A stretch of DNA of 62,808 nucleotides, the filler included, from Stramenopiles sp. TOSAG23-2 (Eukaryota), in assembly GCA_900128395.1 (NCBI GenBank). It is 11 parts of 11 records of this genome, joined end to end, with 100 filler letters (N's around TTAATTAATTAA, not from the genome) between each part and the next. Parts side by side here need not be neighbours in the genome. Positions count along the whole stretch, not along the records: positions 43,084 to 49,129 come from LT650538.1; 10 more parts are not named here. One strand, written 5' to 3'. Position numbers and translations under genes: made by a program. How positions within the stretch are numbered: the first letter of the stretch is position 1; every line of letters starts with the position of its first letter. This document shows, piece after piece, positions 6,064 to 61,597 of this stretch. Below the pieces are notes generated by a model that did not search any database, was not told where the DNA came from, and saw only the letters and a list, made by a program, of their open reading frames with translations.

Positions 6064-6163
6064 NNNNNNNNNNNNNNNNNNNNNNNNNNNNNNNNNNNNN
6101 NNNNNNNTTAATTAATTAANNNNNNNNNNNNNNNNNNNNNNNNNNNNNNNNNNNNNNNNNNNN
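6064..6163. other. Artificial contig linker (N-run, TTAATTAATTAA, N-run)
   Basis: Identical 100-nt spacer with stops in all six frames; also at 12226-12325, 18383-18482, 24539-24638, 30688-30787, 36837-36936, 42984-43083, 49130-49229, 55275-55374 and 61420-61519. Confidence 0.99.
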
Positions 6164-9048: not shown

Positions 9049-11280
9049 TTACAACAAAATGGCATCATCATCATCACCAAATTCATCAACATCACCATCA
9101 TCTTCCATACCAATATCAAAATCATCCATCATTTTTTCCATATCTGCTTTCATTGCTGCAAGTCCACTTTTCTTCTCTAATAATGCACTATCATTGCATG
9201 CATCAATGACGAAATCAATACCACTTGTTGTATATGTATCTATAATCTCTTTACAACATGCTGTACATTTATCATATGCTTCACCTTCAATAATCGTATT
9301 TTTAAATGAGCTTAAATGTCCACGAATTTGATGTGGTAATACACCAAAACTTTTTGTAGTATCATTAGCACTAGCATGATGTTTCAATGGATGGGACCAC
9401 ATTGCAATGCAAAGTTCAACTGCTAATCCAGCAGCAATTGGTGCAAGACCAGGTCGTGTTACAGTGCATTGTTGATCCAATGTTCTGCCAGTTAATGAAT
9501 CACCTGGTGCAACAATATCTGCACAAAAATAACATCCTAATCTAGTTGTTGTAGATATATTTTGTTGTTGTTGCTGCTTATTTTTATCAGAAACAGCAGA
9601 CGTATTAGTACCTTTTTGCTCGTCATCATTATGAACATTCGTATTTGCATCATTTTTCTCCGTCGCGGTAACCTTGTTTTTCTTTCCAACAATGCCACCA
9701 CCATGTCGCATAACTAAATAATTGTCAAATCCAAGTGCTACATTGATGCACATTTTATCTTTCGCTACACATATACATGTTGGTAACCATCTTGATTCCC
9801 TTGTATCTGTTCCTAAAAAAATAACATCATGTTCATCAATTAATGTCTCTAATTGTTTAATACTATCTCTAGCTTCTAATTCGCTCTTACTGTTTGCTTT
9901 GTATCCGTGCCCAGGCATTGGTATTGTCATGATAATACCATTTGATCGCATACCAGGTAAAATTTGTTTCAACGCATTTGCAGCAGCTGTTGATTTATAT
10001 GTTGAAGTTTTACAATCTTCAAATGTAAATAATGATTGACGTACTGGATTACTATAACTAACCGTGCCATTATCAACAAATGTAATATCTCTTACTCCCC
10101 ATCCCATTAATGTACGCGCAACTGCACAACCAAGTGTGCCAGCACCTAACAATAAACATTTTAAATTCGATATAGCATCTGTATCTAAATTAGGCAACAT
10201 TCGCCATCTCATTAATTTCACATTTAAATCAGCACTAGACATTGCTAAATGAGATGGATCCATTGTTGCACCTAAATCAGCACGACGTGGTATTGCTCTT
10301 TTTTTATTATTCAATTCCCAACCTAAAAATGTTTTCTTTGCATTTTCCACGTCTGAAACTACATGATTCAATACTAATGATATGGATTCTGGTACTATGC
10401 CACTACCATGCCCCATGTTGCTACTAAGTATGTCACCACGTAAACAAAATACATTCATCGTTTCAATTTGAAAATGAAAGCGTTGATTTGGTATATCAAG
10501 AAATACACGTAATGGCCATCCTGGATGCTTTCCACTCGAACTTGGATCAAGAAATATCAATTTTGTATTGAACATTTCCCAACTATTTTTATTCGTTAAT
10601 TCTTTAATTTCAACATGGTCTGTTTGTATCGATAATAATTTATTTTCATGCAATATATAAAGTGGATATAATGCTGCATTGCTGTTGTTGATTTTTTCAT
10701 TTTCTATTAAATTAATCATTAATTGTTTTTCATCACTTGTTAGTTTCTTTGATTCTACAACTGTTGTTGTTGTAGCATTATTATTATCATATACCCATGC
10801 GGGAAATCCAAACCAATAAATATATTTATGTTTTTTTACATCAGCATGTACTAATAATACAAATGTGTAATGTGGCTCGGTTCCTTCATCAGTACAACTA
10901 TTTAATATCTTTTCCGAGGCTTCTTTTAATATTGTTTTCTTGTCTAATTTTTTAAATTCATCTATTGTATTTACTAAATATAAAATACCTTTTGCAATAA
11001 TATGGTTCTTTTTATGAAATACCATGCTATTATTATTATTCTCATTGTTATTGTTGGTATCAAATGAATCCGACGATACAGAAATAGTTGGTGGTAAATC
11101 TTTTAAGCTTGCAGGTTGATATGTACCATATATAACCCTGGGTTCCGTTGATAAACGCCATGAATTTAATTTTTTCTTTTCCAACTCACTCCAAAAAGAT
11201 GGGTGTATGGAACTATTAAATGGTACAAATTTCAAAGGTACATTTGATTTACCGTTGTCAGTTGCAACAACAGACGCCAT
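9049..11280 (-). CDS. ATG7: Ubiquitin-like modifier-activating enzyme ATG7
   Basis: N-terminal FWSEL..KKLN.WRL, HPGWPLR, DLNVKLMRWR, GAGTLGC, SNPVRQSLF, TDTRESRWLP, LGCYFC and catalytic DQQCTVTRPG. Confidence 0.97.
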   Translation of the reverse strand: MASVVATDNGKSNVPLKFVPFNSSIHPSFWSELEKKKLNSWRLSTEPRVIYGTYQPASLKDLPPTISVSSDSFDTNNNNENNNNSMVFHKKNHIIAKGILYLVNTIDEFKKLDKKTILKEASEKILNSCTDEGTEPHYTFVLLVHADVKKHKYIYWFGFPAWVYDNNNATTTTVVESKKLTSDEKQLMINLIENEKINNSNAALYPLYILHENKLLSIQTDHVEIKELTNKNSWEMFNTKLIFLDPSSSGKHPGWPLRVFLDIPNQRFHFQIETMNVFCLRGDILSSNMGHGSGIVPESISLVLNHVVSDVENAKKTFLGWELNNKKRAIPRRADLGATMDPSHLAMSSADLNVKLMRWRMLPNLDTDAISNLKCLLLGAGTLGCAVARTLMGWGVRDITFVDNGTVSYSNPVRQSLFTFEDCKTSTYKSTAAANALKQILPGMRSNGIIMTIPMPGHGYKANSKSELEARDSIKQLETLIDEHDVIFLGTDTRESRWLPTCICVAKDKMCINVALGFDNYLVMRHGGGIVGKKNKVTATEKNDANTNVHNDDEQKGTNTSAVSDKNKQQQQQNISTTTRLGCYFCADIVAPGDSLTGRTLDQQCTVTRPGLAPIAAGLAVELCIAMWSHPLKHHASANDTTKSFGVLPHQIRGHLSSFKNTIIEGEAYDKCTACCKEIIDTYTTSGIDFVIDACNDSALLEKKSGLAAMKADMEKMMDDFDIGMEDDGDVDEFGDDDDAILL

Positions 11281-11355
11281 TGCTTGTGTTTTTTGTTATC
11301 TTATTGGTTCAATTATTTCGTATGGTTAAATTGTATCTAATAATGATCGCGTATA

Positions 11356-12225: not shown

Positions 12226-12325
12226 NNNNNNNNNNNNNNNNNNNNNNNNNNNNNNNNNNNNNNNNNNNNTTAATTAATTAANNNNNNNNNNNNNNNNNNN
12301 NNNNNNNNNNNNNNNNNNNNNNNNN

Positions 12326-24700: not shown

Positions 24701-24744
24701 TTCTCTCTCTCTCTCTATATATATATTCTATATTTTTTTAAAAA

Positions 24745-42706: not shown

Positions 42707-43111
42707 GTTTGATCACTAATTTTTTTTTTTCTTTTGTTACTTCACTTTTGAAATTAATAGAGTCCTTCTTCAAAATGATTTATTTTATATATTCTAATAT
42801 ATATATATATATACAATTGGCTCTCTCTTTCATCAATTATTCATCTATATATATCGGATACACCTTTAACTGTCGTCTAGAGATGTGGTGGGTGGGTTTT
42901 GGGGTTTTTTTCTAGTCAAGTATACGGTTTGATAGAAAAACAAGCTAATAAGAATACAAAATATTTTAAATTTTAATAGCATTNNNNNNNNNNNNNNNNN
43001 NNNNNNNNNNNNNNNNNNNNNNNNNNNTTAATTAATTAANNNNNNNNNNNNNNNNNNNNNNNNNNNNNNNNNNNNNNNNNNNNGTGTGTTTTTTATTTCT
43101 TTTTTCAAAAT

Positions 43112-46100
43112 TTAAATACTCTTCGCGTAATCTTTTTTGTGAATATAATTCAAATCTAGCTTATCATTCTCCAACAAAAGACAAACGCTATCGTAATTGC
43201 CATTTAAACACGCTAACCAAATAGGGGTTGCCCCATCAAAACGAACACGATTTACCAATTCGTCTGCGTTTTCTTCTTCCAACATTTTTTTCAATTCTTT
43301 TGTGTAATCATTGGCCGAGGCACAAAAAATGGTGACATTAGCACCAACTGCATAGAGAAGATCCGCAATAGACTTCAAGTTATTTAAACTTGCATTAAAC
43401 ATTGGTGAATTGCCTTTGTTGTCTGGTATATTTATTCCCTTATTGTCTGGTATATTTGAGTCTATGTTTACGTCTAGTTTATCACAGGAAAGAAGAAGCG
43501 TTGTAACAACTTCTTTCTTCTTTTCCTCACTACATTTTTCACTACATACCACTGCATTCAGAGGAGTACGTCCATCTTTGTCTTGTATATTCACATTCAC
43601 ACCATTGTCAAGAAGTTGTGTTACTATTTCCACATGTCCGTTTTCACAAGCATGATGCAGCGGCGTTCGTCCCTTATTATACATTTTCGGATCTGATAAT
43701 AATCTGGAAAATTCATTCATTTCAACAGCGTCACTTATGTCTTTAGCTATATTTGGCTGAGCGAGGAGAAGCTGTACAACTTCAGTATGGCCATATATAC
43801 AAGCAGCATGCAGTGGTGCTGAACCGTAATTATTTAAACTATTTAAATCATCTTTATGTTGCTTAAGGAAATGTTCCACGGTTCTTACTTTACCTTCTTT
43901 ACATGCATCATACAAACCATAGATTTTTCCATTATCAAATGGCATTCCTGGCATTATATCTGCTAAGCTCTCGCTAATTTCTTTTGCTTTTTCGGCAAGT
44001 TGTTGTTTCAATTCTTCGTCTTGAATCCCATAAAGTTTTGCAGCAGTTTCAACACTTGCATCAACAAAAGGATTTCCTCGCTCATTTGTATCTGCTTTGC
44101 CCTTTTTCGTACTGAGTAAAGAAAGAATATGCATACGCTGGTTTTCAAGGGCTACTTTCTTGGCTACACTCAGGATTGTCCCTTGTTTGCAAGTTTTGCA
44201 GCAATAAACTTCATTTAAATTTGCTCCTTGCTGTAGAAGAAAATTTACAATGTCTTCACGACCATGTTTAATAGCAGCTACCAAAGGTTTTCCATTATTC
44301 ACAGAATCTTTCTGCATTAGCTGTTTTACAACCCCAAAATGGCCATATGCACAGGCAACGTGAAGAGGTGTCTCACCATTTTCATTTTCAGTTTTCCAAT
44401 TGGCATTTTTTTCTAGAAGCAATTTTACAACTTTATCGTGCCCAAATTTGGCAGCTGCATGCAAGGGTGTGGATTTGCTTTTTGGAACCGAAATATTAAC
44501 ATCAACACTTTTTTGCAGTAGTCGCTCCACTACTGCTAAATTACCACTCTTGCACGCATAAAAAAGAGCTGTTTTACCTTCATCGTCAGCTATATTCACA
44601 TTAATTTTATCGTTGTCAAGAAGGCACATTATAGAATTTTCATTGGTATGACGTTTTGCTTCTATGATGGACGTTATTAGGGGGGTAGACCCATATTTAT
44701 TAGCAGCATTTACATCTACATTCAAGTCTAGAAGAAGAAAACGCACAACATTGACTTGTCCATACGCACATGCAACATGCAAACAAGAAAAACCATGATA
44801 ATCAGAAAAATTAGTAACACGGGACCCAAGTTTTTGTAAACTTTTTACTACATCAAGATGACCGAAACCACAAGCATAATAAATAAAATTGCGCTGGTTG
44901 TTTTCGCAGAATACCATCGATTTTAGAGTATCGTTTTTCAATTTTAGTTCTAAATTTTTAACAGCAAAGTCGTTGAAGATACCATCCCTTAATGTATGCA
45001 TTGCCTCTTCTGTTTCTCCTTGTTCAATTTTACATAACGATTGTGTCAATAAAGTTTCAACTATGATCCTTTTCCACTCGTTCTCGTTAGAAAAATTTAA
45101 GTTTTTGTGAAATTCTTCTCTAATAAATGCATGAAGCAAATCATGAAGCCCCACGTCAATTTTCCCACCGTCATTCATAAAAGTTTGCTTTTCTTCATCA
45201 GTCATACATTTTGCACAAATATCATAACCACATTTTTTACACCCAATTATACGACTATTTGGATGTATATAGCTCCCACAATCATTACAATTGCGTCCTT
45301 CGTAAATACAGTAAGGTTTTAATTTATCACATTGACCAGTACATTTGTGGTTTTTAGTTCTCTTGTTTGCAATAGGTTTACTATTTTCGTCTTCTTCTTT
45401 CTTCCCTATTGTTCGGGGCCTATTTTCTAACAAGAATACTGCTTCAAGCTTATCCCAAACAAGATTTACATCTTTTATGCGGCCCCAGGACCAAAGAATC
45501 TGTAATGCCTCCTGCGTAATAATTGCACTCACAGGAAATATGCCTAACATTAAATACTTTAAATAAATTTCTTCGCCTAGCAAATCTTTATCTACGCCTG
45601 CACTAATAGCGAGATGCACAGAAGCTTTGTAATCTATGTCAAAACGGGGGCGACCACATTCAGTTGTAGTAAATACTTCAGGATTCCCTTCCAACCTCTT
45701 TTTTAATTCAGCCCAAAGATCTGGTCTATCTTTTTTTTTGCCCAAAAGCTGCTTTGCGATACCACCTGCCACTTTGACTAAAATAGGAATGTACCAACAT
45801 ATTTTTACAACAGCAAACGCATTATTGCAGTCACCATTTGCGTCAATCTGAATGGCTTCAGTTGCTAAACCAGCACTGTTGAGAAGTAGTTTTACGCCTT
45901 CTTCACGAGACAATTTATTTACTTCAATTAGCGTTTCTTCAGGGCAAATATTTTTGTCACGAGTCGTCATAAGAATTGAAAAATTATGATCAATTTCTCT
46001 TATTCTATTTATCACTGCAACCTGTTCTTTATAAATCAAATTGTCAACAATCAATAATAGCGGGCCATTGTTTCTAATATTTTTGTCGAAAATGTTTTTC

Positions 46101-49100
46101 AAATCACTAACAAAATCCTCTTCTACTGCATGTTCATCTTTTTTCATCATACCTAAAGCACGTGTTGCAAGGCGTCTTAGAATCGTTAACGATTTATCAT
46201 CTTTTTGTATTGTAATCCACGCAATACGATTCCCAAATGTCTTCTTTATCGTTTCATTTCGTGCTATTTCTGATGCAGTTACGGTCTTTCCAACTCCACC
46301 TGGGCCATATATAGTTACACTTCTTTTTTTTAAAATAGAGGAAGCAATTTTATTTATCAGGTTTTCTCGTGATAAAAAATATGATGTTCGCTTTGGTATA
46401 TCATTTTCGGGGTTATTGTAATCAATATGGATCCAATCCCCCGGTAATTGTTTCGTATTTTCGTTTCTTCCGGCCATCTCAACATTATAGTCTATGCCAA
46501 GATTGTTTAAAGTCATATTGAACTTTTCAAGGTTCTTCAAAGTAAGATGAGAATTTGCCGAATAATGAAATCTTGCCACATGTTGTAAACCATCTTCAAG
46601 CTTTTTGAGATAGTCTACTATATATAATGCCTCTTCCTTGTTTTCCGTTTTCTTATTCATATTCGTGACCTTTTTAACGATTGTTCGACAAAGACGAACA
46701 AGACGAGCTTCAAATGCAGACGTTTCCTCGCTCTTTTGAGATTTTTCCAACCGCTTTTTGATATAATGTGATGCTACCCAAGTAGCCACATGTACGGCAA
46801 TACCAACGATTGGTAAAGTAGCACTAAGAACACCACAGACTAGACGAAAACCCTTCGCATTGACACTATTATCAATGTCTTTTAATTTGGCACTTATTTC
46901 ATTAAAGGGATCCTTCGAATGGGTCGAGTGATCACCATGACGGGAAAGTAAGTGTGGGGCTTCACGCATAACCTCATCAATCTTCTCAAATAATTCCCCA
47001 CCTACTTCCAAAGTGCTTGAAACAGCATGGGCTGTATGTGTTATATGTTCTGCATGATTTAAATCATGATTTGGATGATGAGGCTCATGATTAGGCCTTT
47101 GCGACAACGCAAAGCAATTGGGATCCTTGCTCGCATCCATAGAACTACTTTCAGAGTCAATAAAGTGTTTTTTAATGTTAAGAAAATCTTCTTTGTTTTT
47201 TGTGCGGACACAGAAATTTTCAGTGAAGTTTATGTCATAGTAATTGTTCTCCTCTGAAAACTTTGGATACTCTTTTGTTCTAAAAGCGATTCTGCTGAGC
47301 TCAACTGTTTTCTCTTTTTGGTTGTACAACCAGTTTGGTATTGTTACAAGTGGTTTGTTAGTGTATATAAAGTGGCCACCTTCGATACGTATTGTGTCCA
47401 AGGTCTTCCACCTAACAGCATTAAACCAACCCTTTTCACGGCGCTCGAAGTTTGCAGCACTTTCAAAATTAATTTGAATAAGTCGAAGCATGTGTCCTGC
47501 ATAAAGTGACTGAAGGGCATCATGCAACTGCGTAGAGCCCCCCCCTCCTTTTGCTGCCGGATTCTTAATAACTTCATTACCGTTATCATTTTCGTTCAAT
47601 AGAGGTTTTGGTTTTAAAGATACCCCAAAATAATGATTTTCAAATCGATGCGCAAGAATAATCGGGTCACGTTCTTCCAAGTCTATATTCCACGCAGGTG
47701 GTAGGTGACGTGAGGTCCAGCCATGTCGACTGGAACAGACCATAATCGGATGCTTGAAAAATACCATTGCGGCTAAAAGCATTCTATCACCGCACCAAGT
47801 TTCATAACTTTTTAAGTTAATTATGTGTTCTTCCCACATTTTAGCTTTCTCACTTTTTGATTTATTTTGGTCAATTGCCATGTTGTAAAAAGTATTTGGA
47901 TCTCCATGTTCTGAATCGTCTATTCGCTTGTCTTTAAACTCTTCAACTATTTGTACAAGCTTCTCCCGTAGTACAATAGCACACGCTTTACAATTTTTGC
48001 TAAATGCAGTTTCCGATTCGCATTTATTACACAGCGGACATCCACTGATATTACCATAGTGACAACTAAGTTTTAATGCATGTAATAAGCATGAGCCATC
48101 TTTCTCAGTCTCTTCTTTTACTAAGCCATATATTTTAAGCCTTTCATCAATATCAATGACAAAATTACTTTTGCTTTCGAGTTTTTGTGCTTTAGGATTG
48201 TCTTCAATCAACTTAGATTTGATGTGCTCAAATAACTTGGGTACAAAATAAGACTGCTTAGGAACCCATACAAGAAATTCATTGAAATCTTTAAATTCAT
48301 AAAAACGCTTCTCACCCGAAAGCACCTTTTTGCTTAAATGAAGTTGGAGATAGATACCATCATCTTCCCCAGACTTAAATATAGCATACCCTCTCAATTG
48401 TTTCTTTCTACTTCCATCAACAATAATTTCAACATCCAGTTCTACCTGAGTTTCTTCACTCTTTGATAATTTAATGGTTATTTGAATCTTCTCTTTTAGT
48501 TCTCCCAAGATGCTAAAACATACATCATCTTCTTTTCTGACGTCAAACTTTGGAAATTCTACGAAACACTTGGTGATTTCCCACTTTAATAGTTTTTCGC
48601 CAGCCAAGAAGTCTGGCAAATCACTTTGATCAACTTTTTCTAGGGCAGCTTTTAAGCTCTCCCTTGAAGAAATACATTTTTTCGTCCAGTCTTGTTTTAT
48701 ACATAGTGCCTGTTTAAGCGTATAATTTTGAAATATACACCGAAATATTAAATGCCATAAAGTAAGCGTCTTTTCATCATCCGCCCGTAAATAAAGTTTC
48801 TCTGCTTCAGTATTGTTTTGGGCATTATTTTTTTGCGTTAGTCGCTGCATAAGTATTTTCAATTCGAAGTTAGGGTAATCATATGATAAATCCTCTTCTT
48901 CTTTTCCCCCTTCTTCTTTTTCCATCTGGTAAGTATTCCTTACAACGTTATTTGTTTCAGGGATAGAATAGTTTATACGCCATGGGTTTTCATTCTTGGA
49001 ATACATCACTCGGAAATGCCTTTCATTCCAACTTCCTATCCACTTCGACTTCTTTTTCAGTTTCCCTTCGTAAACTAAAATATCCTCGTCGTAATCTGTC

Positions 49101-49102
49101 AT
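43112..49102 (-). CDS. NLR-like STAND NTPase: PH - OTU - helical bundle - NB-ARC (with ZZ-like finger) - ankyrin repeats
   Basis: PH: YEGKLKKKSKWIGSWNERHF..LYLRADDE..W. OTU: DGSCLLHAL, WCGD, ENHY. P-loop GPGGVGKT at 46306-46283; Walker B LLIVDN; ILMTTRD; WYIP at the GLPL position; LHDLLH. More than ten ankyrin-like repeats follow. Confidence 0.9.
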   Translation of the reverse strand: MTDYDEDILVYEGKLKKKSKWIGSWNERHFRVMYSKNENPWRINYSIPETNNVVRNTYQMEKEEGGKEEEDLSYDYPNFELKILMQRLTQKNNAQNNTEAEKLYLRADDEKTLTLWHLIFRCIFQNYTLKQALCIKQDWTKKCISSRESLKAALEKVDQSDLPDFLAGEKLLKWEITKCFVEFPKFDVRKEDDVCFSILGELKEKIQITIKLSKSEETQVELDVEIIVDGSRKKQLRGYAIFKSGEDDGIYLQLHLSKKVLSGEKRFYEFKDFNEFLVWVPKQSYFVPKLFEHIKSKLIEDNPKAQKLESKSNFVIDIDERLKIYGLVKEETEKDGSCLLHALKLSCHYGNISGCPLCNKCESETAFSKNCKACAIVLREKLVQIVEEFKDKRIDDSEHGDPNTFYNMAIDQNKSKSEKAKMWEEHIINLKSYETWCGDRMLLAAMVFFKHPIMVCSSRHGWTSRHLPPAWNIDLEERDPIILAHRFENHYFGVSLKPKPLLNENDNGNEVIKNPAAKGGGGSTQLHDALQSLYAGHMLRLIQINFESAANFERREKGWFNAVRWKTLDTIRIEGGHFIYTNKPLVTIPNWLYNQKEKTVELSRIAFRTKEYPKFSEENNYYDINFTENFCVRTKNKEDFLNIKKHFIDSESSSMDASKDPNCFALSQRPNHEPHHPNHDLNHAEHITHTAHAVSSTLEVGGELFEKIDEVMREAPHLLSRHGDHSTHSKDPFNEISAKLKDIDNSVNAKGFRLVCGVLSATLPIVGIAVHVATWVASHYIKKRLEKSQKSEETSAFEARLVRLCRTIVKKVTNMNKKTENKEEALYIVDYLKKLEDGLQHVARFHYSANSHLTLKNLEKFNMTLNNLGIDYNVEMAGRNENTKQLPGDWIHIDYNNPENDIPKRTSYFLSRENLINKIASSILKKRSVTIYGPGGVGKTVTASEIARNETIKKTFGNRIAWITIQKDDKSLTILRRLATRALGMMKKDEHAVEEDFVSDLKNIFDKNIRNNGPLLLIVDNLIYKEQVAVINRIREIDHNFSILMTTRDKNICPEETLIEVNKLSREEGVKLLLNSAGLATEAIQIDANGDCNNAFAVVKICWYIPILVKVAGGIAKQLLGKKKDRPDLWAELKKRLEGNPEVFTTTECGRPRFDIDYKASVHLAISAGVDKDLLGEEIYLKYLMLGIFPVSAIITQEALQILWSWGRIKDVNLVWDKLEAVFLLENRPRTIGKKEEDENSKPIANKRTKNHKCTGQCDKLKPYCIYEGRNCNDCGSYIHPNSRIIGCKKCGYDICAKCMTDEEKQTFMNDGGKIDVGLHDLLHAFIREEFHKNLNFSNENEWKRIIVETLLTQSLCKIEQGETEEAMHTLRDGIFNDFAVKNLELKLKNDTLKSMVFCENNQRNFIYYACGFGHLDVVKSLQKLGSRVTNFSDYHGFSCLHVACAYGQVNVVRFLLLDLNVDVNAANKYGSTPLITSIIEAKRHTNENSIMCLLDNDKINVNIADDEGKTALFYACKSGNLAVVERLLQKSVDVNISVPKSKSTPLHAAAKFGHDKVVKLLLEKNANWKTENENGETPLHVACAYGHFGVVKQLMQKDSVNNGKPLVAAIKHGREDIVNFLLQQGANLNEVYCCKTCKQGTILSVAKKVALENQRMHILSLLSTKKGKADTNERGNPFVDASVETAAKLYGIQDEELKQQLAEKAKEISESLADIMPGMPFDNGKIYGLYDACKEGKVRTVEHFLKQHKDDLNSLNNYGSAPLHAACIYGHTEVVQLLLAQPNIAKDISDAVEMNEFSRLLSDPKMYNKGRTPLHHACENGHVEIVTQLLDNGVNVNIQDKDGRTPLNAVVCSEKCSEEKKKEVVTTLLLSCDKLDVNIDSNIPDNKGINIPDNKGNSPMFNASLNNLKSIADLLYAVGANVTIFCASANDYTKELKKMLEEENADELVNRVRFDGATPIWLACLNGNYDSVCLLLENDKLDLNYIHKKDYAKSI

Positions 49103-49229
49103 GCTGATAATAAATAATTAAATATAAATNNNNNNNNNNNNNNNNNNNNNNNNNNNNNNNNNNNNNNNNNNNNTTAATTAATTAANNNNNNNNNNNNNNN
49201 NNNNNNNNNNNNNNNNNNNNNNNNNNNNN

Positions 49230-56642: not shown

Positions 56643-59258
56643 TATCAAACAATAATACGTAGTGCTTTATTTTCATATAAATATGAAAGGTCATTAGGTT
56701 TCATAATAACTGAGGATGATATTACAGCAGATTGGTTGGAAAACACTTTAAATAATCAACAATGTTTCTCAACACCTGTAAGTATTAAGAGCATTCGTAT
56801 TTCTCTAGTTGGTGAAGATAGTGGTAATGCATCTACTATTTACCGGATTTATATTGAATTTAAAAATATCAATAATTGCATAGAATGTCCATCAACAATG
56901 ATGTTAAAATTGCCCAAAAATAGTCTATTTAACAAAGTAATATTTTCATCTACTCGTATGTATGAAATGGAAGTATGTTTTTATGCATACATCCAAGAAT
57001 ATTTTCCATTGGCTAGTGCTAAACATTATGCTAGTGCATATTGCAAAACTGGTGGTGGATTATTTTATATTTTAATGCAAGATTTGAACACAATAAAAGA
57101 TGGCCAAAAAAAAGTTGAATTTGTAAGAGAAAATGATTCATGTGATACAAATCGTGCTTTAAATGTTGTTACTTCTTTAGCTCAATTTCATGCGACTTTT
57201 TGGAATTCGCCACCAGATTTTATAATGCCACAAAATGAACCAAGGTTAACATTAACTGGAGTAGCAATGAAAGGATCATGGAATAAATTTGTTTCTCGTC
57301 TTCATGATCGATTGCCACAAGATATTTTAAAACGTGGCTTATCATTGCATAAGATAGCGTTGAAAATTCAAGATCGATTATCAACAGGACCACAAACAAT
57401 TACCCATGGAGATTGTCATCTAGAAAATATGTTTTTTATCATTAGCAAACAGACCAAAGATGGTGTTGGTGTTGATGATAAAGTAGGTCTTTATGATTGG
57501 CAATTAATGCGTAGAGGTCGTGGCATGTTAGATATAGCAAATTTCATCGCCGGATCATTAACAATTGATGAAGAGACACATGGCCTTGAAGCTTTTCTTG
57601 TTGGTATTTATGTAGATAAATTAAAAAATTTAGGTATTATGGGGTATACACATGAAGATGCATGGCTGGATTATCGCCTATCTGTTGTCATGCTTTTTAT
57701 TTGGAATGTTTCTGCTGCTATGGCAGTGCCATTTGATACAAGTGGAGCTGATGATTATGATACCTATATATTACGTATATGTAATTGTGTTGTTCGACAT
57801 GGTTTAATTGATGTTGCATTGTCATATGTAGATGAGTGTGAAAACAATGTAAATAAGTTACCTTTAACTTTATCATTTCCTGGTGAAGCAAGTCATGAAT
57901 TAATTGAACCTCGAATTGATTTGCATGTAACAAAACATACACCACCAAGAGATCGAACAAGTTGTATTGCAATGTTAAAACATCGTATTGCATGTTTTTT
58001 AACATCATCAAAAGGTGGACACCATGGTCAAGGAAGTGATGATAGGTCGGAATTACAATTAGAATCATGCCATGATGTAGACTGGGCAAAAAATACAGAT
58101 GGAGAAGATCATGCATTTGATTCATATTATATTTCAGGTTTTAATGGTAGTATTGAAATGGATGAAGATGGTATTGATGATATGAATGACGGAGTTTCAT
58201 TTGCCATTCGTTTATGCAGGAGAACAAATAGGGAAAGTGGGGAAGTTTGGGTCATTCTAGATGTTCCAGGAATAGGTATTGTCATGTCTCCATTACATCC
58301 TACAACTATTGCAAACGTTATGGAACTTAAACATGGCAAAGGAGTAAAAGTTGAAAAAAGCAAAGATTCTTCCTTTCAATTAATATTGGAGCTACATGAG
58401 CCAATGGATGTTTGGAAAGTAACTTTAGAAGGGATCTTGATTCACAAAGATTATGGAACTGAATATGAAGTTAAATTACAAGGTACATGGACTGCAACAG
58501 GTGGTATGTTTGCTTTTGGGAAAGATTTGGATCCATTATTGACTGCCGAGGGATTATCTCGGGAAAAATGGTCAGGGGATTTTTTTAAAGAATTAAGAGC
58601 AAGTCATCAAGAACATTATGAACAATTTGGGATCACAGATGGGACATTGGAAATACGTTTGCATAAATCAACAAATAATCACAGGAACAACAATAATCCA
58701 GGCTGGGATATTTTTCCTATCCATGCATGTGGGATGAGAGATCGAGCTTGGGGAATACGAGATTGGGCATATTTGTCTCGTTATTGTTCAATGTATTTTT
58801 GGGCACAAGATGTTGAAAATGATGAAATGTGGCATTTTAATATCAGCTTGGTGTCATTACCAACTATGACCCATTTAAAAACAGGATCAGTGGAACGTAT
58901 TGGTATTGATGATAAACCGAGATCAATTGAATCATGTACTGGCTCGTTGCCATTATTGGGAGTGGACGGTACGCCACCACAACGATTTCAATTTGGTTTT
59001 AAATCCAAAGATGGTTATCGTTATCAATTACAATCCTCTGTAGAGCTTGGGAATACGATTGGATTGGATATGGGACCTGACAGATTTTTTGTTAATGTTC
59101 GTTTAACAAATTTCACAATACATACTATTCATCCAGTAACAAATGAAATTAGGACATTAGAAGGTTATGGTGGTAGTGAATTTGGGTACAGAAGAAAAGG
59201 AGTAGTACCGTATCGACCAACGGAAATAGTAGGTGGGAAGGATCCAACGTTGCATTAA
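56643..59258 (+). CDS. APH/EcKL-type phosphotransferase fused to a beta-rich RDxxWG domain
   Basis: LKLP, YEMEVCFY, LAQFHA.FW, HGDCHLENMF, YDWQ, DIA.F; C-terminal HYEQFG..GMRDRAWGIRDW. Frame is open from 56643, but there is no ATG before the conserved N-terminus. Confidence 0.82.
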   Translation, partial: YQTIIRSALFSYKYERSLGFIITEDDITADWLENTLNNQQCFSTPVSIKSIRISLVGEDSGNASTIYRIYIEFKNINNCIECPSTMMLKLPKNSLFNKVIFSSTRMYEMEVCFYAYIQEYFPLASAKHYASAYCKTGGGLFYILMQDLNTIKDGQKKVEFVRENDSCDTNRALNVVTSLAQFHATFWNSPPDFIMPQNEPRLTLTGVAMKGSWNKFVSRLHDRLPQDILKRGLSLHKIALKIQDRLSTGPQTITHGDCHLENMFFIISKQTKDGVGVDDKVGLYDWQLMRRGRGMLDIANFIAGSLTIDEETHGLEAFLVGIYVDKLKNLGIMGYTHEDAWLDYRLSVVMLFIWNVSAAMAVPFDTSGADDYDTYILRICNCVVRHGLIDVALSYVDECENNVNKLPLTLSFPGEASHELIEPRIDLHVTKHTPPRDRTSCIAMLKHRIACFLTSSKGGHHGQGSDDRSELQLESCHDVDWAKNTDGEDHAFDSYYISGFNGSIEMDEDGIDDMNDGVSFAIRLCRRTNRESGEVWVILDVPGIGIVMSPLHPTTIANVMELKHGKGVKVEKSKDSSFQLILELHEPMDVWKVTLEGILIHKDYGTEYEVKLQGTWTATGGMFAFGKDLDPLLTAEGLSREKWSGDFFKELRASHQEHYEQFGITDGTLEIRLHKSTNNHRNNNNPGWDIFPIHACGMRDRAWGIRDWAYLSRYCSMYFWAQDVENDEMWHFNISLVSLPTMTHLKTGSVERIGIDDKPRSIESCTGSLPLLGVDGTPPQRFQFGFKSKDGYRYQLQSSVELGNTIGLDMGPDRFFVNVRLTNFTIHTIHPVTNEIRTLEGYGGSEFGYRRKGVVPYRPTEIVGGKDPTLH

Positions 59259-61419: not shown

Positions 61420-61597
61420 NNNNNNNNNNNNNNNNNNNNNNNNNNNNNNNNNNNNNNNNNNNNTTAATTAATTAANNNNNNNNNNNNNNNNNNNNNNNNN
61501 NNNNNNNNNNNNNNNNNNNTGGTAAAGTCACAATCTTTTACCTTTAAACCTAAGTGTAATTTTCTAGTTAATTTAATTGTAATTTTTTTTTGCAAAA

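Follow-up and report, generated by a model that had tools for sequence, protein, structure and literature searches.

A predicted two-zinc finger in the winged-helix hairpin of an NB-ARC-ankyrin protein from Stramenopiles sp. TOSAG23-2

Apaf-1, CED-4 and plant NLRs share a P-loop, a Walker B segment, TTR and GxP-type motifs, a winged helix and the histidine of an LHD motif, and all of these are found in a protein predicted from the DNA analyzed here, a 62,808-nucleotide stretch from Stramenopiles sp. TOSAG23-2 (GenBank assembly GCA_900128395.1; hereafter, the window). In the off state of Apaf-1 and NLRs, the MHD-type histidine touches the bound ADP, and activation depends on a movement of the winged-helix domain away from the nucleotide-binding domain. 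An earlier reading of the window (hereafter, the original prediction) proposed that in this protein a ZZ-like zinc finger is inserted in the winged helix, just before the MHD motif, as an integrated sensor or decoy. We analyzed the position, coding status and type of this insert, and compared the protein with its relatives and with known receptors.

In plant NLRs with integrated domains (NLR-IDs), the extra domains are placed terminally or between the N-terminal and NB-ARC domains. To our knowledge, integrated domains of NLRs have been described at the ends of the protein or between its major domains and not inside the winged-helix hairpin; judging by titles and the beginnings of abstracts, we found no paper in the literature on NLR integrated domains that describes a domain inside this hairpin. 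The window protein also carries an extra domain embedded in an NLR-type receptor, and it resembles in this respect the plant NLR-IDs with BED zinc-finger, HMA or WRKY domains, which likewise hold a small non-canonical binding domain inside the receptor (reviewed in PMC9528084, PMC4759884, PMC5067614, PMC11436982).

The wing insert and its finger

The gene occupies a minus-strand frame of 2001 open codons (43112-49117), and a TAA in the same frame stands a short way upstream of its Met codon (Table 1); residue numbers of the window protein start at the first codon of this frame and not at Met. By its sequence, the predicted product is an Apaf-1-type STAND ATPase in which an OTU-like N-terminal region is followed by an NB-ARC domain and ankyrin repeats. 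Its NB-ARC domain passes Pfam PF00931, carries the motif set (P-loop GPGGVGKT at 46283-46306, Walker B LLLIVDN, TTR-type MTTRD and a GxP-type motif) and the LHD histidine, and has the predicted NBD-HD1-WHD fold. A weak Pfam match to Dark_WHD covers residues 1189-1234.

An exhaustive search of representatives yielded 704 matches at E ≤ 0.001 (best, 7.5e-25), of which the best 150 were used. The top match by E-value, P0004 (2827 aa), is a plant-type NLR whose NB-ARC segment is repeated seven times, which looks like an assembly or gene-model artefact. We aligned residues 905-1400 of the window protein with 66 of the 150 matches, hand-picked because the match reached the winged-helix domain, and left out those ending before it (alignment A1, 67 rows). 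G943 and K944 of the P-loop, D1025 of Walker B and R1053 of the TTR motif occupy invariant columns of this alignment.

The original prediction had taken the spacer before the MHD motif to be normally short, the insert to be about 85 aa long (45140..45420) and LHD to lie at the MHD position, and it had suggested an alignment with Apaf-1 and paralogs as a check. The alignment delimited the insert and bore out these points. L1229 and H1325 of the window protein stand in a Leu and a His column, each conserved in ≥90% of the alignment's 67 rows, and the His is present in 65 of the 66 relatives (P0068 has Gln). The interval from the conserved Leu to this His is 95 residues in the window protein, compared with exactly 11 in 40 of the 66 relatives (median 11); it is ≤20 in 60 and >20 in the remaining 6 (32, 34, 37, 42, 47 and 100), and a rougher count over the full set of 152 fetched proteins agreed with this. 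When the A1 profile was compared with murine Apaf-1, '…lrLHDLqhdY…' fell on '…YYLHDLQVDF…', and the column of H1325 aligned to Apaf-1 His438 (position counted from the printed numbering), where the matching Leu-His interval is 13 residues. In the window protein, WDKLEAVFLLE (residues 1221-1231, 45425-45457) and LHDLLH are separated by 92 residues (45149-45424). The Cys motif string between them, HKC..QC..C..CNDC..CKKCGYDICAKC, reads exactly as originally noted. The net insert is ∼84 aa (45149-45424), ending one residue ahead of LHD, and the predicted borders were right to within a few bases.

We then modeled residues 905-1400 with AlphaFold2 (AF2) on the A1 alignment. The model, with a mean predicted local distance difference test (pLDDT) score of 77.6, has strands flanking the insert at model residues 327-329 and 417-419 and helices at 310-322 and 403-412, and pLDDT is <50 for model residues 336-391. 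The best match of the predicted fold is to Apaf-1 in its closed, ADP-bound form (Foldseek, 1z6t, E 1e-14, query TM-score (TMq) 0.56, root-mean-square deviation (rmsd) 4.6), with a lower TMq of 0.39 against the active apoptosome; on murine Apaf-1 (VIA, 3sfz), model residues 1-496 superpose on chain residues 117-511 (Z 30.9, rmsd 3.6 over 373 residues). The alignment columns, the profile match to Apaf-1 and the modeled strands thus support the placement made in the original prediction, with the insert between the strands of the winged-helix hairpin (hereafter, the wing) and directly before the MHD-equivalent His. Within the insert, we distinguish a charged linker, which is likely to be flexible in view of its modeled confidence, a predicted finger, and a short helix with the return strand (Table 1).

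The insert is coding sequence and not an intron, a conclusion that is supported by several observations. The frame of the 276-nt insert stays open in only 6 of 20,000 mononucleotide shuffles, and the other two frames contain 5 and 15 stops; its G+C fraction is 0.348, compared with 0.362 for the whole frame. The finger region has 9 Cys in 46 residues, a density reached in 11 of 20,000 whole-protein shuffles (Cys content of the whole protein, 2.5%). In four marine metatranscriptome runs, two RNA contigs from different studies, X2/14 (45001-45377) and X14/1 (45084-45325), match the window with 0 mismatches each; they extend through the LHD and the complete finger and past each of the candidate acceptors between 45001 and 45377, and no joint was seen in any RNA contig on the gene. 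These are assembled contigs for which DNA carry-over is possible, and no contig bridging the N-side border (45424/45425) was found in the four runs; most of the gene has no RNA contig in these runs, which is not evidence of absence. The RNA check suggested at the outset therefore agrees with the earlier view that the insert is no in-frame intron, in that the contigs run unbroken from the LHD into the finger. One further contig, X17 record 10 (48694-48844), shows 8 differences over 151 bases, mostly T>C, which suggests that the ocean population contains a related strain or allele; all other contigs match the window exactly.

Eight Cys are proposed as zinc ligands of the finger (C1259, C1263, C1277, C1280, C1293, C1296, C1301 and C1304), in the pattern C-x3-C-x13-CxxC-x12-CxxC-x4-CxxC. 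A generalized form, C-x3-[C/H]-x13-C-x2-C-x12-C-x2-C-x4-[C/H]-x2-C, occurs once in the window protein (1259-1304) and 14 times in P0010, a 1594-aa ENA metagenome protein; the eight-ligand pattern is absent from every other fetched protein, from the rest of the six frames of the window and from all of 80 metagenome loci (0/80). The 14 repeats of P0010 pass Pfam C1_2 (E 3e-50); they are near-identical and in tandem, with Ser/Lys/Ala-rich linkers between them and no other domain. An ungapped BLASTP alignment of the window finger with these repeats gave E 2e-5 and 32% identity. Against the PDB, a single P0010 repeat matched 6tly, the KKT2 central domain (E 1.6e-6), 1v5n, a DC1 domain (2.7e-3), and the HERC2 ZZ domain (0.026), and its 'CDWDIC' aligned on 'CDYDVC' of 6tly. 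Language-model look-alikes of residues 1250-1312 in the ESM Atlas were C1_2, zf-KKT2_KKT3 and, as a minority, ZZ (score 0.90). Because its ligand order and spacing are shared with P0010, whose repeat best matches 6tly, we assign the finger from its sequence to the DC1/KKT2-CL type of binuclear finger, in which it would be ZZ-like in a permuted sense only.

Direct profile searches with the insert returned sub-threshold rows, including IBR (E 0.07-0.16), C1_1 and C1_2 (PF03107, 7.5-8.4 bits against a cut-off of 26). No row for zf-KKT2_KKT3 (PF26235) was returned on the insert, a model that was possibly absent from the Pfam copy used. Compared with PDB sequences, the insert gave only weak RING, FYVE, ZZ and KKT2 rows (6tly, E 0.95). 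In ZZ domains, three CxxC pairs are followed by a C-terminal His pair; in the window protein, the next His after C1304 is H1325, the MHD histidine itself, and the fourth ligand pair is N-terminal (C1259-x3-C1263). The ZZ profile search suggested in the original prediction returned nothing for PF00569 across the insert, even with a limit of E ≤ 10. With neither a profile row nor a C-terminal His pair, membership of the Pfam ZZ family was rejected, and the term 'ZZ-like' survives only for a circularly permuted relative. A FYVE reading was also rejected, as its E-value of 0.007 is below threshold and the RHHCR-type basic motif is absent.

According to passages of two sources, the CL domain of KKT2 represents a ZZ domain in circularly permuted form (bioRxiv 10.64898/2026.08.13.744621), in which a Cys and a His near the N-terminus, spaced four residues from each other, bind one zinc, and which shows a weak likeness to C1 domains and one strictly conserved Asp (PMC8178753). 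This invariant Asp, which follows a Tyr, is described in the same preprint passages as binding the free N-terminus of H3 (bioRxiv 10.64898/2026.08.13.744621). By way of two bridging alignments and these passages, Y1298-D1299 of the window protein (D1299 being the Asp of GYDIC, codon 45221-45223) would correspond to the Tyr-Asp of KKT2 CL.

To see how the wing varies among relatives, we built a FastTree tree of all 67 A1 rows from query columns 10-330 and 415-480, with the insert excluded. The window protein groups with P0005-P0008 (local support 0.96), and the next sister is P0058 with P0098 (0.70). Most relatives have an 11-residue wing, unlike this clade, in which wings are expanded to different lengths (P0007, 13; P0006, 32; P0008, 47; window, 95; P0005, 100); those of P0058 and P0098 are 34 and 37 residues, and of the long-winged rows only P0041 (42) lies elsewhere in the tree. 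The wing insert of P0008 (∼residues 673-717) carries WTCLVCEERNDAGIFNCALC, for which the best Pfam row is C1_2 (E 0.025) and no zf-RanBP row was obtained; it fits what we take to be the RanBP2-type C4 pattern, for which Pfam gave no confirmation. In P0005, the wing insert (∼residues 615-712, ∼90 residues) has a weak SH3_3 match (E 0.012) as its sole Pfam row. Pfam found no recognizable domain in the wings of P0006, P0007, P0058, P0098 and P0041. P0005 and P0008 have TIR_2 N-termini, and P0005 and P0006 have ankyrin repeats. P0005-P0008 are predicted proteins from EukProt or metagenome contigs, and their inserts are likewise predicted. Because wings of 13-100 residues in the clade have unrelated contents, the wing looks like an insertion hotspot, a recurrent slot for modules.

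Possible roles of the finger

The finger may be an integrated protein- or peptide-binding module in the wing, and the reading that we tentatively prefer, to which we give slightly less than even credence, is that its occupancy or docking biases the movement of the winged-helix domain. D1299, which would correspond to the invariant Asp in ZZ and KKT2 CL, may recognize a free N-terminus. Docking or occupancy of the finger would then shift the winged-helix domain relative to the nucleotide-binding domain, because the C-side tether from the finger to the ADP-holding His (H1325) is only 20 residues, with a short helix, and such a shift would bias the off/on equilibrium. A sensor role is plausible, and it becomes more so because the N-terminus-binding Asp appears to be retained and because the closest clade holds unrelated modules at the same site.

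Several results weigh against this reading. The 25-aa flexible linker on the N-side weakens mechanical coupling, and wing inserts without a recognizable domain are present in P0006, P0041, P0058 and P0098. On the insert, no Pfam family reached its cut-off (best, FYVE at E 0.007). Conservation of the pocket is partial: the GFD of KKT2, before the first CxxC, is GRN in the window protein, and the first Asp of the D-x-D found in KKT2 (DYD) and P0010 is Gly (GYD). The finger was modeled poorly, with a pLDDT of 54 when modeled alone by AF2 (single sequence, without zinc) and <50 within the larger model, and Foldseek against the PDB with the isolated finger model returned one meaningless row (E 7.9); for a single sequence modeled without zinc, this outcome is uninformative about the fold. 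Searches for counterparts were also negative. A word-index search gave only 2 weak matches for residues 900-1400 and none for the finger alone; there was no orthologue among the best 150 of the 704 matches of the exhaustive search. A metagenome scan with residues 1150-1400 gave 225 pattern matches, none of them confirmed, and a scan with the clade alignment gave 124 generic NB-ARC relatives, of which 80 were kept (21-49% identity) and none (0/80) has the finger pattern.

A serious alternative, which we consider quite possible, is that the solvent-exposed tip of the wing is a permissive loop that tolerates inserts, and that the finger is a passenger without effect on the ADP/ATP switch or, in a variant of the same idea, a constitutive localization or partner-recruiting module. 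The 32-47-residue wings lacking a recognizable domain in several relatives fit a merely permissive loop, as does the long flexible linker ahead of the finger, and the protein already has, in its ankyrin repeats, a sensor-type domain of the conventional kind. Against this stand the intact finger, with its eight ligands and what appears to be the functionally critical Asp, the short tether (20 residues) to the MHD His, and at least two other clade members with Cys-rich or SH3-like modules at the same spot. Tolerated decoration of the loop therefore fits the data about as well as a sensor or decoy.

The reading of the finger as a switch-biasing module can be extended to the whole clade, with the wing as a plug-in slot for interchangeable small binding domains (a KKT2/ZZ-like finger in the window protein, in P0008 a C4 finger, and in P0005 a module resembling SH3), and with the window finger reading protein N-termini that are free or newly made, so that neo-N-termini from proteolysis trip the switch directly. 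We regard this extension as unlikely.

Rather improbable is a RING-like or other ubiquitin-system module (E3-type or ubiquitin-binding) acting with the OTU-like region and not as a ligand sensor. The best match of the insert among PDB sequences is indeed the RNF4 RING (E 3e-4 for a tandem construct, ∼0.1 for single RINGs), the IBR row noted above (E 0.07-0.16) points the same way, and the ESM Atlas gives an OTU lead for residues 310-540; however, the finger has neither the C-x-H-x2-C core nor the C-terminal CxxC pair of RING domains, its spacing matches the DC1/KKT2-CL type exactly, and the RING and IBR scores are all below threshold. The possibility that the mature protein lacks the insert, as it would if this were an in-frame intron or if the assembly were chimeric, appears very remote: the region allows five in-frame GT…AG pairs of ≥150 nt, the RNA contigs leave the N-side border unbridged and the source looks like a small draft assembly, but it is largely refuted by the open frame (6 of 20,000 shuffles), a complete ligand set of a known zinc-finger type, RNA contigs of two studies that pass all candidate acceptors between 45001 and 45377 without a joint, and marine metagenomes of other studies that contain parts of the same stretch.

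Surroundings of the gene and remaining features

The window is AT-rich (27-42% G+C in 2-kb windows) and gene-dense, with long uninterrupted frames. Its ATG7, aspartyl-protease, TerD and EcKL-type genes (Table 1) show it to be nuclear DNA of a eukaryote. At 99% identity, the ATG7 product matches a cluster of 45 marine metagenome proteins (next best, 52%), and the stretch around the insert is matched by marine metagenomes and metatranscriptomes; from these identities and matches, the host would be an uncultured marine protist. Paired 44-base N runs recur every ∼6.15 kb (6064-6163, 12226-12325, … 61420-61519) and are not biological; one pair (49130-49229) lies just upstream of the gene start and another (42984-43083) just downstream of its stop.

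For the N-terminal 894 aa of the window protein, there was no PDB sequence match below E 0.1, and the only Pfam row was PH at E 9.7. The nearest ESM Atlas clusters of residues 310-540 are PF02338 OTU (score 0.90), which are language-model look-alikes, and no Pfam or PDB sequence match was found for these residues; we treat the OTU identity as a lead only. Immediately C-terminal to DGSCLLHAL in this OTU-like region is a second Cys cluster (∼47975-48091, residues 343-381; 7 Cys in 46 residues, CxxC at 360, 363 and 376), which may be a small zinc ribbon inserted there.

Table 1. Coordinates of the gene, its predicted domains and insert parts, and other genes of the window
Feature	Residues	Position	Strand	Basis or remark
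Whole gene	1996 aa from Met	43112..49102	minus	Intronless; Met 49100-49102; stop 43112-43114
OTU-like region, DGSCLLHAL and nearby Cys cluster	310-540	47498..48190	minus	ESM Atlas clusters
NB-ARC	919-1143	45689..46363	minus	Pfam PF00931, 68.4 bits against cut-off of 23.5
Winged-helix helices and start of first wing strand, …WDKLEAVFLLE	1185-1231	45425..45565	minus	Dark_WHD, AF2, alignment
Insert part 1, charged linker NRPRTIGKKEEDENSKPIANKRTKN	1232-1256 (25 aa)	45350..45424	minus	AF2 pLDDT <50
Insert part 2, two-zinc cross-brace finger HKCTGQCDKLKPYCIYEGRNCNDCGSYIHPNSRIIGCKKCGYDICAKCMT	1257-1306	45200..45349	minus	Predicted
Insert part 3, short helix and return strand DEEKQTFMNDGGKIDVG	1307-1323	45149..45199	minus	AF2 pLDDT 66-72
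LHDLLH	1324-1329	45131..45148	minus	H1325 = MHD-equivalent histidine
Ankyrin-repeat region	∼1400-2001	43115..44920	minus	Ank_2 E 7e-71 (7 stretches); Ank 8 stretches
ATG7 gene		9049-11295	minus	Intronless
Protein with aspartyl-protease C-terminal half	1913 aa	12609-18350	minus	
TerD-domain protein		24742-26784	plus	
EcKL-type kinase-like protein		56643-59258	plus	

Comparison with known receptors and fingers

The position of the insert in the winged-helix hairpin is unusual, and the pattern in the clade is suggestive. Should the finger gate the switch, the nucleotide sensor itself would be coupled to ligand sensing with no route through a C-terminal repeat domain, and the wing site would be a candidate position for receptor engineering. 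The occurrence of different modules at one wing site across the clade would make a testable evolutionary hypothesis, and the link to KKT2 CL and ZZ names free N-termini as a first ligand class. If neo-N-termini did trip the switch, the protein would be an N-terminus-sensing NLR built unlike any described receptor; if the finger is a passive decoration, it would be a modest curiosity of an uncultured protist.

In its overall plan, the window protein differs from Apaf-1 and plant NLRs in what flanks the shared core: CARD and WD40, or CC, TIR and LRR, in those receptors, and an OTU-like region and ankyrin repeats here. It also resembles the NB-ARC-ankyrin NLR-like proteins of fungi (surveyed in PMC4986451) and protists, which have the same order of NB-ARC and then ankyrin repeats with a variable N-terminal effector, and its relatives P0005 and P0006 have the same NB-ARC-ankyrin layout.

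The finger, in turn, is predicted to be of the binuclear cross-brace type, like KKT2 CL, DC1 and ZZ. With KKT2 CL and DC1, it has in common a C-x3-[C/H] pair at the N-terminal end, three pairs of the CxxC form and, preceding the fifth Cys, a Tyr-Asp; DC1 has His where the window finger has Cys. In KKT2 CL and ZZ, as given in the excerpts cited above, the Asp binds a free alpha-amino group, and by alignment the window finger appears to keep this Asp. The hosts, by contrast, are dissimilar: KKT2 and ZZ fingers are found in a kinase or in an E3 or histone acetyltransferase context, whereas the host of the window finger is the wing of an NB-ARC protein.

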